DNA from: Escherichia coli
GTDB lineage: Bacteria > Pseudomonadota > Gammaproteobacteria > Enterobacterales > Enterobacteriaceae
DNA length: 19,408 nt
Reading direction: 5' to 3' (one strand)
Assembly (NCBI RefSeq): GCF_003334385.1
Contig: NZ_QOWN01000061.1
The translations under genes and the position numbers were made by a program. Shown one piece after another: positions 4,724-18,708 of the stretch. Each line of letters begins with the position of its first letter. Position 1 is the first letter of the stretch. Under the pieces are notes generated by a model. It was not told the origin of the DNA, did no database searches, and saw nothing but the letters and a program-made list of their open reading frames with translations.

Positions 4724-4926
4724 GTTCTATTCCTTATGCGGGGTCAGATACTTAGTTTGCCCAGCTTGCAAAAAGGCATCGCTGCAATTGGTGCTGAAAC
4801 GATAAAGTAATTGTGTGACCCAGATCGATATTTACAGGGAGCCTGCCTTTCCGGCGTTGTTGTTATGCCCCCAGGTATTTACAGTGTGAGAAAGAATTAT
4901 TTTGACTTTAGCGGAGCAGTTGAAGA

Positions 4927-5892
4927 ATGACAAAGTATGCATTAGTCGGTGATGTGGGCGGCACCAACGCACGTCTTGCTCTGTGTGATATTGCCAGTGG
5001 TGAAATCTCGCAGGCTAAGACCTATTCAGGGCTTGATTACCCCAGCCTCGAAGCGGTCATTCGCGTTTATCTTGAAGAACATAAGGTCGAGGTGAAAGAC
5101 GGCTGTATTGCCATCGCTTGCCCAATTACCGGTGACTGGGTGGCGATGACCAACCATACCTGGGCGTTCTCAATTGCCGAAATGAAAAAGAATCTCGGTT
5201 TTAGCCATCTGGAAATTATTAACGATTTTACCGCTGTATCGATGGCGATCCCGATGCTGAAAAAAGAGCATCTGATTCAGTTTGGTGGCGCAGAACCGGT
5301 CGAAGGTAAGCCTATTGCGGTTTACGGTGCCGGAACGGGGCTTGGGGTTGCGCATCTGGTCCATGTCGATAAGCGTTGGGTAAGCTTGCCAGGCGAAGGC
5401 GGTCACGTTGATTTTGCGCCGAATAGTGAAGAAGAGGCCATTATCCTCGAAATATTGCGTGCGGAAATTGGTCATGTTTCGGCGGAGCGCGTGCTTTCTG
5501 GCCCTGGGCTGGTGAATTTGTATCGCGCAATTGTGAAAGCTGACAACCGCCTGCCAGAAAATCTCAAGCCAAAAGATATTACCGAACGCGCGCTGGCTGA
5601 CAGCTGCACCGATTGCCGCCGCGCATTGTCGCTGTTTTGCGTCATTATGGGCCGTTTTGGCGGCAATCTGGCGCTCAATCTCGGGACATTTGGCGGCGTG
5701 TTTATTGCGGGCGGTATCGTGCCGCGCTTCCTTGAGTTCTTCAAAGCCTCCGGTTTCCGTGCCGCATTTGAAGATAAAGGGCGCTTTAAAGAATATGTCC
5801 ATGATATTCCGGTGTATCTCATCGTCCATGACAATCCGGGCCTTCTCGGTTCCGGTGCACATTTACGCCAGACCTTAGGTCACATTCTGTAA
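4927..5892 (+). CDS. glk: Glucokinase, 321 aa
   Basis: [20 protein letters not shown]-terminal ATP-binding motif of the ROK-like glucokinase family; full length 321 aa. Stop TAA at 5890-5892. Confidence 0.96.
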
Positions 5893-5905
5893 ATCCTTCC
5901 TTTTA

Positions 5906-5937
5906 TATCGGGAGGTAACTCTCCCGATAATCTTTTA
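5906..5937 (+). terminator. Probable intrinsic terminator of glk
   Basis: Inverted repeat TATCGGGAG-gtaa-CTCCCGATA (5906-5928) followed by a short T-rich tract (aTCTTTT), 14 nt after the glk stop. Confidence 0.5.
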
Positions 5938-6110
5938 AATCATACAGTTTATTCAATTTTTCTTTGTGTCCCCTCACAAGGTCGACCTGCGTCACACTTC
6001 CGTACAGCGGGATTAATTCTCCAGTAAATGCATTATTTGTCTGGTAACGGCGATTTGTTTTGCACGTTCATAATTTCACTCGTCAACTATCACTGAACGA
6101 GGAATTAACG

Positions 6111-6437
6111 ATGAGTAAGAAACTGATTGCCTTATGTGCCTGCCCGATGGGCCTGGCTCACACCTTTATGGCCGCTCAGGCGCTGGAAGAAGCGGCGGTA
6201 GAAGCCGGTTATGAAGTGAAAATTGAAACCCAGGGCGCGGACGGTATCCAGAATCGCCTGACGGCGCAGGATATCGCCGAAGCGACCATCATCATCCACT
6301 CCGTGGCAGTTACCCCGGAAGATAACGAACGTTTCGAATCACGCGACGTTTATGAAATCACTTTGCAGGACGCAATTAAAAACGCTGCGGGCATCATCAA
6401 AGAAATCGAAGAGATGATTGCCTCTGAACAACAGTAA
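6111..6437 (+). CDS. fryB: PTS fructose-like EIIB component FryB, 108 aa
   Basis: The ORF-track start at 6060 is trimmed to the ATG at 6111, which is preceded by GAGGA. The active-site Cys context LCACPMGLAHTF is typical of fructose-type EIIB. First gene of a tightly packed five-gene operon. Confidence 0.9.
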   Translation: MSKKLIALCACPMGLAHTFMAAQALEEAAVEAGYEVKIETQGADGIQNRLTAQDIAEATIIIHSVAVTPEDNERFESRDVYEITLQDAIKNAAGIIKEIEEMIASEQQ

Positions 6438-6458
6438 TATTCGACAGGGATAATTGTT

Positions 6459-7706
6459 ATGGCCATTAAAAAACGCAGTGCAACCGTTGTGCCTGGCGCA
6501 TCCGGTGCGGCAGCGGCAGTTAAGAATCCGCAGGCCTCTAAAACCAGCTTCTGGGGTGAACTCCCGCAGCATGTGATGTCAGGGATTTCACGCATGGTGC
6601 CGACCTTAATTATGGGCGGTGTGATCCTCGCTTTCAGCCAGCTGATTGCTTATAGCTGGCTTAAAATTCCTGCTGAGATCGGCATCATGGATGCTCTTAA
6701 TAGCGGGAAATTCTCCGGTTTCGACCTCTCCTTACTTAAATTTGCCTGGCTGTCGCAGTCCTTCGGCGGCGTGTTGTTTGGTTTTGCCATTCCGATGTTT
6801 GCTGCTTTTGTGGCGAACTCTATCGGTGGCAAACTGGCGTTCCCGGCTGGTTTTATCGGCGGGTTGATGTCTACCCAGCCGACGCAACTGCTGAACTTCG
6901 ATCCCAGCACTATGCAATGGGCGACCTCTTCGCCGGTGCCGTCCACCTTCATTGGTGCGCTGATTATTTCTATCGTTGCCGGTTACCTTGTGAAGTGGAT
7001 GAACCAGAAAATCCAGTTACCGGATTTCCTGTTAGCGTTCAAAACCACATTTTTGCTCCCGATTCTTTCCGCCATTTTTGTCATGCTGGCGATGTACTAC
7101 GTCATCACCCCCTTTGGTGGCTGGATCAACGGCGGTATCCGTACTGTGCTGACTGCCGCAGGTGAGAAGGGCGCGCTGATGTACGCAATGGGGATCGCCG
7201 CGGCGACAGCAATCGACCTTGGTGGCCCGATCAACAAAGCCGCAGGTTTTGTTGCCTTCAGCTTTACCACTGACCACGTATTACCGGTCACCGCTCGTTC
7301 TATCGCTATCGTTATTCCGCCGATTGGTCTGGGGCTGGCGACCATTATCGACCGTCGTTTAACCGGCAAACGCCTGTTCAACGCTCAACTTTATCCGCAG
7401 GGTAAGACCGCCATGTTCCTGGCGTTTATGGGGATCAGTGAGGGTGCGATTCCGTTTGCGCTGGAAAGCCCCATCACCGCCATTCCGTCGTATATGGTCG
7501 GCGCTATTGTCGGCTCAACCGCCGCTGTCTGGCTGGGCGCAGTGCAATGGTTCCCGGAGTCCGCTATCTGGGCATGGCCGCTGGTCACTAACCTGGGCGT
7601 CTATATGGCGGGGATCGCGCTGGGGGCAGTCATAACTGCGCTGATGGTGGTGTTCCTGCGTCTGATGATGTTCCGTAAAGGCAAATTGTTAATCGATAGC
7701 CTGTAA
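6459..7706 (+). CDS. fryC: PTS fructose-like EIIC permease FryC, 415 aa
   Basis: Polytopic membrane ORF 22 nt downstream of fryB with an AGGGA ribosome-binding site. Length matches FryC. Confidence 0.92.
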
Positions 7707-16057: not shown

Positions 16058-17296
16058 ATGGCTGACACTCGCCCTGAACGTCGCTTTACGCGCATTGATC
16101 GTCTCCCGCCCTACGTTTTTAACATCACCGCTGAACTGAAAATGGCTGCGCGTCGGCGCGGCGAAGATATTATCGATTTCAGCATGGGTAACCCGGACGG
16201 TGCGACTCCGCCGCATATCGTCGAAAAATTATGTACTGTGGCCCAGCGCCCGGACACGCATGGTTACTCCACTTCACGCGGCATTCCGCGGTTACGTCGC
16301 GCCATTTCCCGCTGGTATCAGGATCGCTACGACGTTGAAATCGACCCGGAATCAGAAGCCATCGTCACTATTGGTTCGAAAGAGGGCCTGGCGCATCTGA
16401 TGCTGGCGACGCTGGATCATGGTGACACGGTGCTGGTGCCGAATCCAAGTTACCCGATCCATATTTATGGCGCGGTGATTGCCGGGGCGCAGGTACGCTC
16501 AGTGCCGCTGGTGGAAGGTGTCGATTTCTTCAACGAACTGGAGCGAGCCATTCGTGAAAGTTATCCGAAACCGAAGATGATGATCCTCGGCTTCCCGTCA
16601 AACCCAACCGCGCAATGCGTGGAACTGGAGTTCTTCGAAAAAGTAGTGGCGCTGGCGAAACGCTACGATGTGCTGGTGGTCCATGACCTGGCCTATGCCG
16701 ATATCGTCTACGATGGCTGGAAAGCGCCGTCAATTATGCAGGTACCGGGTGCACGCGATGTGGCAGTCGAGTTCTTTACGCTGTCGAAAAGCTACAACAT
16801 GGCGGGCTGGCGTATCGGCTTTATGGTTGGCAACAAAACGCTGGTCAGCGCCCTGGCTCGTATTAAAAGCTATCACGATTACGGCACCTTTACGCCGTTG
16901 CAGGTGGCGGCGATTGCGGCGCTGGAGGGCGATCAACAGTGCGTGCGCGACATTGCCGAACAGTACAAACGCCGCCGTGATGTATTGGTTAAAGGGCTGC
17001 ATGAAGCGGGCTGGATGGTTGAAATGCCGAAGGCTTCGATGTATGTCTGGGCGAAAATCCCGGAACCATATGCGGCCATGGGATCGCTGGAATTTGCCAA
17101 GAAGCTCCTTAACGAAGCGAAGGTTTGTGTCTCGCCGGGGATTGGCTTTGGCGACTATGGTGATACGCATGTTCGCTTTGCACTGATTGAAAACCGCGAC
17201 CGTATTCGTCAGGCCATCAGAGGGATTAAAGCGATGTTCCGTGCCGACGGTTTACTACCCGCCAGCAGCAAACATATTCACGAAAACGCGGAATAA
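16058..17296 (+). CDS. alaC: Glutamate-pyruvate aminotransferase AlaC (class I PLP-dependent aminotransferase), 412 aa
   Basis: PLP-lysine region [12 protein letters not shown] and aminotransferase class I fold motifs. Full-length ORF with a GAGG ribosome-binding site. Confidence 0.95.
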
Positions 17297-17315
17297 ACAC
17301 CGTCGTCAGAAATGC

Positions 17316-17346
17316 AAACAGGAGCCTGATGGCTCCTGTTTTTCAT
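17316..17346. terminator. Intrinsic terminator, probably bidirectional for alaC (+) and ypdK (-)
   Basis: Perfect 8-bp GC-rich stem CAGGAGCC-tgat-GGCTCCTG followed by TTTTTCA on the plus strand, with AAA on the 5' side providing a T-run for the minus strand. Confidence 0.75.
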
Positions 17347-17360
17347 TGCACAGTTTGCTT

Positions 17361-17432
17361 TTAGATCATCAGGGCAAAAGTACCGGCCCAAACGATGACC
17401 ATAAAAGAAATGCCCATAAAGAAATATTTCAC
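17361..17432 (-). CDS. ypdK: 23-aa hydrophobic micro-protein YpdK (MKYFFMGISFMVIVWAGTFALMI), GTG start
   Basis: Hand-translated from the minus strand: GTG at 17432-17430, stop TAA at 17363-17361, GGAG about 9 nt upstream. It is below the ORF-track length cutoff. The sequence matches my recollection of K-12 YpdK. Confidence 0.6.
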   Translation of the reverse strand: MKYFFMGISFMVIVWAGTFALMI

Positions 17433-17705
17433 TTTACATCTCTCCGCGTAATTACTGTTACGCCTGAATGACTTCATTACACCTGATACAGTGAGTTGAC
17501 ACCGGGCAAAGCGACCTTAAAAGCCCTGTATTTTACCGTGGGCATCACCCCAGAATTCTGAGCTAAACTGCTCGAGACGGCGCTAATGTACGCCTAAAAC
17601 TGAAACGAGACAAGAGGCATTTTCTTATTTACTTTTAGTAACTTACAAGTGTCTCATATCGGCGACAGTTTAATTTCTGACGGTAATAATTAGATATTCA
17701 GCGAA

Positions 17706-17754
17706 GGAAAAAACCTTAAGAAAAAAGCCATAAAAACCATGAGGTTATTATGGC
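17706..17754 (-). terminator. Probable intrinsic terminator of lpxP
   Basis: A 12-bp stem with one mismatch (GCCATAAAAACC-atga-GGTTATTATGGC, 17727-17754) about 35 nt after the lpxP stop, followed on the minus strand by TTTTTTCTTAAGGTTTTTTCC. Confidence 0.55.
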
Positions 17755-17787
17755 CGATTTGAGGAGGGAAAGAGTAAGAGCAGTTTG

Positions 17788-18708
17788 TTAAATGTACAAC
17801 GACGATTCTCCCACCGGGCGCGTTTTAAAGCGACGGTGGATCCAGAGGTACTGCTCCGGTGCGCGCATGATCTCTTTCTCGATAATCTTGTTCATATAGG
17901 CAGCGGCTTGATTTTCATCTGTCGGGTAGCCTTCCATCTCTGGGGTGATGAACAAACGATATCCGCTGTAATCCGCTTTTCTTACCATCGTTACGGTCAA
18001 CATGGCTGCGCCAGAGAGACGGGAGAGAACATAGGTGCCATTGGTTGTGGCGACATTTTCCACCGCAAAGAACGGCGCGAAGGAGCTGCCTTTACGACCA
18101 TAATCCTGATCGGGAGCAAACCATACCGCTTCACCTTTCTTCAGTGCACCGACAATGCCGCGCAGATTATTTCTGCCGATCATCGCTTTGTTAGAGCGCA
18201 TGCGCCCACGGGTCTGCACCCATTCCATCAGCTGATTATTATGTGGACGATAGGTAGCCATCATTGGTTGGCACAGTCCCATCACGCGGCCGCCCAGTTC
18301 CAGCGACATAAAATGGACGCCGACAACCATTACGCCGCGATTTTGCATTTGTGCGCGTTTAAGGTTATCCAACCCTTCAACATCAAACCATTTACGTACG
18401 CGACTGTCGGGCCAGAACCATGCCATGCCGGTTTCTACCAGCGCCATGCCGAGTGAACGAAAGTTTTCGGCAATCATCTTCTCGCGTTCTTCCGCAGAAT
18501 GCTGCGGGAAACAAAGTTCCAGGTTTTTACGGGCGATAGATTCACGACGTTTCAGGAATGGTCGCGCCATTGCGCCAATACGCGTGCCGAGAAAGCAGAG
18601 AACAGGATAAGGAAGCTGTACCCAAAGCCAGAGTACACCAAGCCCAAACCATGTGAGCCAGTAGCGAGGATGTAGAAACTCGCGGGAAAATTTGCATTGT
18701 GGAAACAT
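17788..18708 (-). CDS. lpxP: Lipid A biosynthesis palmitoleoyl-ACP acyltransferase LpxP (cold-induced LpxL paralogue), 306 aa
   Basis: LpxL/LpxM/LpxP acyltransferase family. The ORF-track start at 18774 is trimmed to the ATG at 18708 (MFPQCKFSREF...), preceded by AAGG, giving the expected 306 aa. Calling it lpxP rather than lpxL rests on synteny with alaC and yfdY. Confidence 0.88.
   Translation of the reverse strand: MFPQCKFSREFLHPRYWLTWFGLGVLWLWVQLPYPVLCFLGTRIGAMARPFLKRRESIARKNLELCFPQHSAEEREKMIAENFRSLGMALVETGMAWFWPDSRVRKWFDVEGLDNLKRAQMQNRGVMVVGVHFMSLELGGRVMGLCQPMMATYRPHNNQLMEWVQTRGRMRSNKAMIGRNNLRGIVGALKKGEAVWFAPDQDYGRKGSSFAPFFAVENVATTNGTYVLSRLSGAAMLTVTMVRKADYSGYRLFITPEMEGYPTDENQAAAYMNKIIEKEIMRAPEQYLWIHRRFKTRPVGESSLYI

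Follow-up and report, generated by a model that had tools for sequence, protein, structure and literature searches.

The unannotated stretch between lpxP and ypdK in Escherichia coli is probably the ypdK control region and a conserved, structured 5′ leader

The classic leader with a stabilizing stem-loop at its 5′ terminus is the 5′ untranslated region (UTR) of ompA. A different precedent is the dual-function RNA AzuCR, which is 164 nt long and encodes the 28-amino-acid (aa) protein AzuC (PMC8915982). Here we compare both systems with the message of ypdK, the gene for a conserved E. coli small membrane protein of no known function, and with the DNA that precedes it. This DNA, positions 17433–17705 of the window (a stretch of 19,408 nt from E. 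coli; RefSeq assembly GCF_003334385.1, contig NZ_QOWN01000061.1), lies between ypdK and the lpxP terminator, and an initial annotation had described it as non-coding sequence with no assigned function. With a probability of roughly 0.85, we read it as the transcriptional control region of ypdK together with the 5′ untranslated leader of its mRNA, both on the minus strand. It carries a promoter, a start site and conserved leader helices, and both ends of the transcript are defined.

Like other structured 5′ UTRs that stabilize their messages, the ypdK leader is longer than 100 nt and has a predicted stem-loop within 1–2 nt of its 5′ end. Further hairpins lie upstream of its ribosome-binding site (RBS), and the Shine–Dalgarno (SD) sequence and the start codon fall outside the conserved helices. 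Unlike the ompA-type leaders, to which it has no sequence relationship, it contains a long internal hairpin with a dispensable interior (P1 below) that has no obvious counterpart among them, and a stabilizing effect on ypdK mRNA is only suggested here. With AzuCR and other dual-function RNAs, the ypdK RNA shares a short monocistronic form (∼266 nt), a protein of fewer than 30 aa and nucleotide conservation beyond coding needs, but neither targets for base-pairing nor binding by a chaperone is known for it.

We took 80 LpxP loci, one per species. The main alignment covers 27 species of Escherichia, Salmonella, Citrobacter, Enterobacter, Lelliottia and Silvania, or 28 with Klebsiella. The block from 17706 to 17542 has a mean pairwise identity of 0.81 with 44% of its columns invariant, and the segment from the −35 hexamer to the transcription start site (TSS) reaches 0.89 with 61% invariant. 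The benchmark, third-codon positions of lpxP, stands at an identity of 0.50 with 4% of columns invariant; the spacer directly after the lpxP terminator has a mean pairwise identity of 0.35 and the interior of the leader hairpin one of 0.47. Conservation of the block is at the level of coding first positions, well above the neutral benchmarks, and its onset at 17705/17706 is abrupt.

The block also follows ypdK. All 27 loci with ypdK, and no other locus of the set, have an invariant core, TTTTAGGCGTACATTAGCGCCGTCT, at a constant position ∼170 nt upstream of the ypdK start; the core is missing from the 54 LpxP loci that lack the gene. Conversely, ypdK is present at every locus carrying the block. 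In several Citrobacter ∼650 bp separate lpxP from the block, and in Silvania ∼2.8 kb do so; in both the block still adjoins ypdK. The upstream neighbour in Klebsiella pneumoniae is a cyanate transporter gene, not lpxP, and there too the block remains with ypdK. Because its identity is far above that of lpxP third positions and because it travels with ypdK, we conclude from the alignments that strong purifying selection acts on the stretch, which belongs with ypdK and not with lpxP. The control region of ypdK is more conserved than most coding third positions, which implies that expression of the gene is tightly specified.

The features of the control region, from its upstream end to the start site, are as follows.

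17646–17706, minus strand: upstream conserved block, about −69 (also given as −70) to −128 from the TSS, from the alignment
17614–17645, minus strand: A/T-rich, UP-element-like tract directly upstream of the −35 hexamer, from the alignment (identity 0.81)
17608–17613, minus strand: −35 hexamer TTGTCT (TTGTCA in Enterobacter, Lelliottia and Silvania), from the alignment
17585–17590, minus strand: −10 hexamer TACATT, from the alignment
17584–17579, minus strand: GC-rich discriminator AGCGCC, directly after the −10 hexamer
17578, minus strand: ypdK TSS (G), predicted from sequence and then found in a published TSS map

A scan of both strands yielded a single sigma-70-like promoter with a conserved position, TTGTC(T/A)-17-TACATT, which reaches a score of 8/12 or more in 22 of the 27 species. 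The E. coli hexamers each match the consensus at four of six positions, the −10 retaining its key A2 and T6, and the Enterobacter −35 (TTGTCA) matches at five of six. Hexamers and discriminator are invariant or nearly so, the 17-bp spacer is partly variable, as expected of a promoter, and columns 17595–17576 are ∼100% identical in the 27 species. The window has a single copy of the pattern, and 200 shuffles have none. A generic scan for promoters and terminators missed this promoter, whose score of 8/12 falls under the scan's threshold; its hits were limited to a plus-strand site peculiar to Escherichia and a stem within ypdK that is due to chance.

We predicted from sequence that ypdK transcription starts at 17578 (K-12 v2 2494797), and this prediction was recorded before the literature was consulted. 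The map of Kim 2012, which was obtained by enrichment of 5′-triphosphate ends (PMC3415461), lists in its Table S1 a ypdK TSS at NC_000913.2 2494797 (+) with 18 reads and a 5′ UTR of 146 nt (PMC3415461). This is window position 17578, exactly the predicted base, and lies 7 nt after the −10 hexamer. The upstream sequence given for this TSS ends with ...GGCGTACATTAGCGCCG / ...TTTTAGGCGTACATTAGCGCCG (PMC3415461), and no other TSS in the list falls within 2494600–2495099. The ypdK promoter and UTR are already mapped, the TSS having been public since 2012, and with a published TSS inside the stretch the phrase ‘no assigned function’ was too strong. The same map contains a weaker TSS (12 reads) at v2 2494578, which corresponds to window ∼17797 on the minus strand, inside the 3′ end of lpxP (PMC3415461); it is assigned to ypdK with a 365-nt UTR, and its transcript must pass the lpxP terminator. 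We also considered as the main promoter a second one, built on the TATAAT that Salmonella and Enterobacter carry at ∼17490, and rejected it: no −35 stands at a suitable distance, Escherichia and several Citrobacter have lost the element, and the map of Kim 2012 has no TSS at this position.

Term-seq puts the primary 3′ end of the ypdK mRNA at K-12 2497040, window 17313 (Adams 2021, PMC7815308), and the same data contain no 3′ end between 17721 and 17313, hence none inside the gap (Adams 2021, PMC7815308). Two further features complete the transcript.

17432–17361, minus strand: ypdK coding sequence (CDS), a hydrophobic protein of 23 aa with a GTG start, K-12 annotation b4680
17313–17341, minus strand: ypdK terminator, bidirectional and common to alaC, with the mRNA 3′ end at 17313, from an inverted repeat and Term-seq

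In the arrangement that we propose, a sigma-70-type promoter composed of the A/T tract, TTGTCT, 17 bp, TACATT and AGCGCC would direct initiation at G17578, and the transcript runs 146 nt to the ypdK GTG and on to the ypdK/alaC terminator. The resulting RNA, of ∼266 nt, is made up of the 146-nt leader, the terminator and, between them, a CDS of 72 nt with its stop codon. As the initial annotation had remarked, a ypdK promoter alone would need less space than this gap offers; the 146-nt 5′ UTR explains the extra length. The suggestion of a ypdK regulatory region made there is likewise borne out, in the form of a promoter, a mapped TSS and a conserved, structured 5′ UTR. The terminator hairpin shared with alaC (17316–17341) is itself conserved, with a compensatory change in the stem from GGAGCC/GGCUCC to GGCGCC/GGCGCC, the latter being found in several Enterobacter, in Silvania and in one metagenome-assembled genome.

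The leader contains the following elements.

17433–17578, minus strand: ypdK 5′ UTR (leader), 146 nt, from TSS to GTG
17557–17577, minus strand: predicted 5′-terminal stem-loop starting at +2, outer stem UCUG...CAGA, inner stem variable
17541–17551, minus strand: P1 5′ arm (GGGGUGAUGCC), pairing with 17503–17493, from RNAalifold and covariation
17504–17540, minus strand: P1 interior, variable and dispensable (alignment identity 0.47)
17493–17503, minus strand: P1 3′ arm (GGUGUCAACUC), whose complement is the plus-strand TTGACA at 17496–17501, from covariation
17446–17463, minus strand: hairpin directly 5′ of the SD sequence, GCGUAA-N6-UUACGC, from RNAalifold and covariation
17440–17445, minus strand: ypdK SD sequence GGAGAG, 7 nt before the GTG at 17432, from sequence and nearly invariant

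Unguided RNAalifold returned both P1 and the hairpin adjacent to the SD sequence. Counted over 28 species including Klebsiella, 95% of P1 cells are paired, and in seven of the ten pairs both partners have changed, as with GAGGUGAUGC/GCAUCAGCUC in Citrobacter versus GAGCUGGAGUC/GAUUUCAGUUC in Enterobacter. The SD-adjacent hairpin has 89% of its cells paired and two of six pairs compensated. Its stem reads GCGUAA/UUACGC or, in Salmonella, GCGUAC/GUACGC, and Klebsiella has a distinct stem at the same position. For the structure as a whole, 92% of cells are paired as against 31–43% in slid controls, nine pairs have changed on both sides, and none of 500 shuffles reaches the observed covariation score. 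The 5′-terminal stem-loop emerges from RNAalifold on the full mRNA and from single-sequence folds; its outer pairs are invariant, and covariation is uninformative there. A check of conservation and covariation across Enterobacteriaceae, as proposed in the initial annotation, returns both strong constraint (the identity of 0.81 above) and covarying leader helices.

G·U pairs make up 45 of the 280 P1 cells (16%), and P1 is therefore an RNA helix on the ypdK strand rather than one on the complementary strand or a DNA palindrome. The plus-strand TTGACA at 17496–17501, which had been noted as lacking a convincing −10 partner, indeed has none in the promoter scan or in the 27-species scan; it is not a promoter element, being the complement of the P1 3′ arm. 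The interior of P1 is variable. In the Escherichia lineage L003 a 33-nt deletion reduces it to a tetraloop hairpin, and shorter interiors are also found in L018 and L020. Single folds of the Enterobacter and Salmonella leaders extend P1 to a hairpin of ∼60 nt.

These results also bear on the proposal, raised in the initial annotation, that the stretch could hold a small RNA (sRNA), that is, an independent trans-acting gene on either strand. Such a gene would account for the high conservation and for several inverted repeats capable of forming hairpins. However, no intrinsic terminator is predicted in 17433–17705 and no Term-seq 3′ end lies from 17721 to 17313; the 27 species share no conserved plus-strand promoter, antisense to ypdK; and the G·U pairs assign the conserved helix to the strand of ypdK, within the mapped 5′ UTR. 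A scan of Rfam 15 with E. coli 17000–18100 and positions 4950–5420 of the Enterobacter locus L014 gave chance-level matches only, with none below E = 10 in the block from either E. coli or Enterobacter. A separate sRNA gene is thus very unlikely, and this part of the initial annotation was not upheld.

Coding could also explain the conservation, if the gap held either a small protein that is missing from the annotation or an upstream open reading frame (ORF) with a regulatory role. The K-12 leader does contain an ORF of 22–23 codons (MPTVKYRAFKVALPGVNSLYQV; 17480–17548, minus strand) that starts in the P1 5′ arm, and the 33-nt deletion in L003 keeps it in frame. Against this, no start is common to all species on either strand, and the leader ORF is missing in Enterobacter, Lelliottia and Silvania, with neither peptide sequence nor length conserved. 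Its SD-like GAGGU is just 1 nt from the AUG. Substitutions follow no 3-nt period, and conservation is highest in a segment upstream of the TSS. We consider a coding explanation highly improbable. The earlier statement that no ORF with an RBS is present was essentially right, although two mechanical ORFs of 21–23 aa do exist, neither of them conserved. That the stretch is non-coding and unannotated agrees with the K-12 RefSeq record. As a separate observation, Escherichia has an ATG-TAA start–stop pair between the ypdK SD sequence and the GTG (17434–17439, minus strand); in other genera ATG-AAA stands there and opens an out-of-frame ORF, the ATG being too near the SD sequence for an obvious start.

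Constraint at the nucleotide level extends into ypdK itself. Codons 1–9 (17406–17432, minus strand) are nucleotide-identical in 27 species of six genera, and third-position identity in the gene is 0.75, compared with 0.50 in lpxP; both features argue for a constraint on RNA or DNA beyond the protein sequence. Perfect 10-nt palindromes occur both in these codons (GAAAUAUUUC) and in the leader (CAGAAUUCUG).

The unusual conservation of synonymous sites, with the first nine codons invariant, could mean that the ∼266-nt ypdK transcript is a dual-function RNA in the manner of AzuCR, encoding the 23-aa protein and base-pairing in trans through the leader or the 5′ coding segment. The RNA is short and is independently transcribed and terminated, and invariant segments of the leader, for example CAGAAUUCUG, are predicted to be single-stranded. 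No target, seed or Hfq/ProQ association is known, however, and no such role is reported in the main texts of papers that mention ypdK; moreover, functions in cis can equally account for the conservation. We therefore regard trans base-pairing by this RNA as decidedly unlikely. The gene also recalls a type I toxin: its ORF is small and hydrophobic, its 5′ UTR is long, structured and highly conserved, and a conserved block lies upstream. In that case the long leader would be the target of a divergent antisense RNA transcribed from the block. The divergent RNA has no conserved promoter or terminator, no TSS is listed in its orientation, and the locus is single-copy and core, being present in 5,423 of 5,426 E. 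coli genomes. Of all the alternatives this is the least probable, with a likelihood close to negligible.

We return to the reading of the stretch as the promoter region and leader of ypdK, and to what its parts might do. The leader folds into P1 (17551–17541 with 17503–17493) and a short hairpin abutting the SD sequence, in addition to the predicted 5′-terminal stem-loop, and these hairpins would act in cis on the ypdK mRNA. Their most likely role would be to shield the 5′ end and the body of a very short mRNA from RNase E or from 5′-end-dependent decay; alternatively, they could form a processing site or a site for binding of a regulator. Upstream, one or more transcription factors would bind the 60 bp in front of the A/T tract (−69 to −128).

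Several observations weigh against this reading or parts of it. The K-12 leader alone folds no better than shuffled sequences (z = −0.74), and its minimum free energy structure lacks P1. Much of the P1 covariation reflects one split between two clades, so that the independent events are few. The effect of the leader on predicted RBS accessibility is the same as that of shuffled leaders. The ypdK TSS comes from one data set, with 18 reads against a mean of 108. A scan of transcription-factor consensuses in the 27 species assigned none to the upstream block, and global alignment of the whole promoter to rrnB P1 scored no higher than alignment of shuffles.

Because the test of RBS accessibility was negative, we favour, with modest confidence, stabilization or processing of the mRNA over translational occlusion among the possible roles in cis; the leader hairpins probably do not occlude the RBS. 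The gap is largely explained, and by an ordinary kind of element, a promoter followed by a structured 5′ UTR. Its exceptional conservation and the covarying leader hairpin appear to be undescribed so far. The gain is incremental, the arrangement being familiar and the TSS already in a public data set, but it closes an apparent gap in annotation and, with a defined promoter, an operator-like upstream block and a covarying leader hairpin, provides handles on when and why YpdK is made. A bolder version holds that the leader, perhaps with all the rest of the ∼266-nt transcript, is a regulatory RNA that has so far gone undescribed. It would be either a cis element that detects a signal, or to which a dedicated protein or sRNA binds, through the invariant CAGAAUUCUG and P1, or a dual-function RNA acting in trans, and it would be driven by a growth-rate-dependent or stringent UP-element promoter with a conserved operator. 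We think this possible, though unlikely.

The upstream block (17646–17706) has a mean pairwise identity of 0.78 and 38% invariant columns, compared with an identity of 0.35 in the adjacent spacer. It contains an inverted repeat, TGTCG-N8-(C/A)GACA, at 17667–17650, with its centre near −80.5; the words TCGC, ATTTATT, GAAAT, AAACTGTCGCCG and GTAAGT are invariant. We presume that the block comprises binding sites for one or more transcription factors. Consensuses for Fis, IHF, CRP, RcsB, CpxR, OmpR, PhoP, LexA, ArcA, FNR and Lrp gave no match whose position is kept in all species; 14 of the 27 have an IHF-like word and 10 of the 27 an OmpR-like word. RNAalifold on the upstream block alone, with 12 close species, found no covariation, the block being nearly invariant in them. 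Long-range pairs that had been proposed for the block were dropped when the wider set of species placed their 3′ partner in P1.

The A/T tract reads TAAGTTACTAAAAGTAAATAAGAAAATGCCTC in E. coli and ...GGAAATTATTTAAAAAAATGCCTC in Enterobacter. The Enterobacter version of the promoter shares with rrnB P1 a 10-mer, CCTCTTGTCA, that spans the −35 hexamer, and the two promoters also have in common an A/T-rich upstream tract and, from −10 to +1, a GCGCC discriminator. They differ in the spacer (17 bp for ypdK, 16 bp for rrnB P1), in the −10 (TACATT for ypdK, TATAAT for rrnB P1) and in the −35 of E. coli, TTGTCT; in addition, the read count at the ypdK TSS is low and there is no conserved Fis-site consensus upstream. 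The rrn-like features (the TTGTCA-type −35, the A-tract and GCGCC) suggest sensitivity to growth rate or guanosine tetraphosphate (ppGpp), which is only a lead. Directly upstream of the −35 hexamer (17614–17627, minus strand), E. coli and Salmonella carry TAAGAAAATGCCTC. This word resembles an RcsB box (TAAGAATATTCCTA); most other genera do not keep its G, and only 3 of the 27 species pass a scan that allows three mismatches.

Beyond the right end of the stretch lies Tpke70 (EcoCyc G0-8906), a candidate sRNA of 436 nt whose sequence we took from the supplement of PMC6172242. It maps to window 17724–18159 on the plus strand, antisense to the 3′ end of lpxP and its terminator, so that it starts 19 nt to the right of the stretch and includes no base of 17433–17705. 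Tpke70 belongs, like the ypdK control region, to the lpxP–alaC interval, whose conservation between enterics was the original reason for flagging Tpke70; unlike that region, Tpke70 is on the opposite strand and overlaps the lpxP 3′ end. Tpke70 is thereby clarified as a separate, opposite-strand annotation. The conserved control region of ypdK may be what drew the old screen to this interval.

The right end of the stretch could nevertheless serve as the Tpke70 promoter. A promoter-like plus-strand site confined to Escherichia, GCGACA-17-AATAAT, is present at 17662–17690, and a start directed by it would fall ∼25–30 nt before the annotated Tpke70 5′ end. This site is found in only 4 of the 27 species, however, although the surrounding block is conserved in all of them, and Kim 2012 lists no TSS there. 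The boundaries of Tpke70, for their part, come from a computational screen, and no co-purification with Hfq was found. We see only a very slight chance that the Tpke70 promoter lies at the right end of the stretch.

The neighbouring genes and the right boundary are the following.

18708–17788, minus strand: lpxP, K-12 RefSeq annotation
17721–17754, minus strand: lpxP intrinsic terminator, the right boundary, outside the ypdK unit, from an inverted repeat and Term-seq
16058–17296, plus strand: alaC, RefSeq annotation

Positions 17300–17800 of the window are identical to the sequence of E. coli K-12 MG1655, in reverse complement relative to NC_000913.3, and coordinates convert as K-12 v3 = 2514353 − window coordinate. 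The K-12 RefSeq record has zero annotated features between lpxP and ypdK. At ≥95% identity the stretch is single-copy in 5,423 of the 5,426 complete E. coli genomes, and the only features annotated under it in those 5,423 are ypdK and lpxP. The inverted repeat of the lpxP terminator forms a hairpin at 17727–17754, and Term-seq places the 3′ end of the lpxP mRNA at K-12 2496632, window 17721 (Adams 2021, PMC7815308).

An origin from mobile elements or plasmids was considered and set aside: the ‘plasmid’ matches that we checked are Mb-sized records, mislabelled chromosomes, and the one from Klebsiella that we inspected is chromosome-like. A phage origin was rejected likewise, the sole phage match being a 2-kb Salmonella fragment. 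The DNA from lpxP to the ypdK control block is a hotspot of change (loci L005, L007–L009 and L011 at ∼4920–5640; L021 and L024 at ∼4920–7600; and L083), and the ∼650-bp Citrobacter insert in L005 resembles an opposite-strand gene. A further Term-seq 3′ end lies at K-12 2495560 (window ∼18793, minus strand), 85 nt upstream of the lpxP start (Adams 2021, PMC7815308). Its position in the lpxP 5′ UTR suggests that transcripts of this cold-induced gene either terminate prematurely or are processed within their leader.

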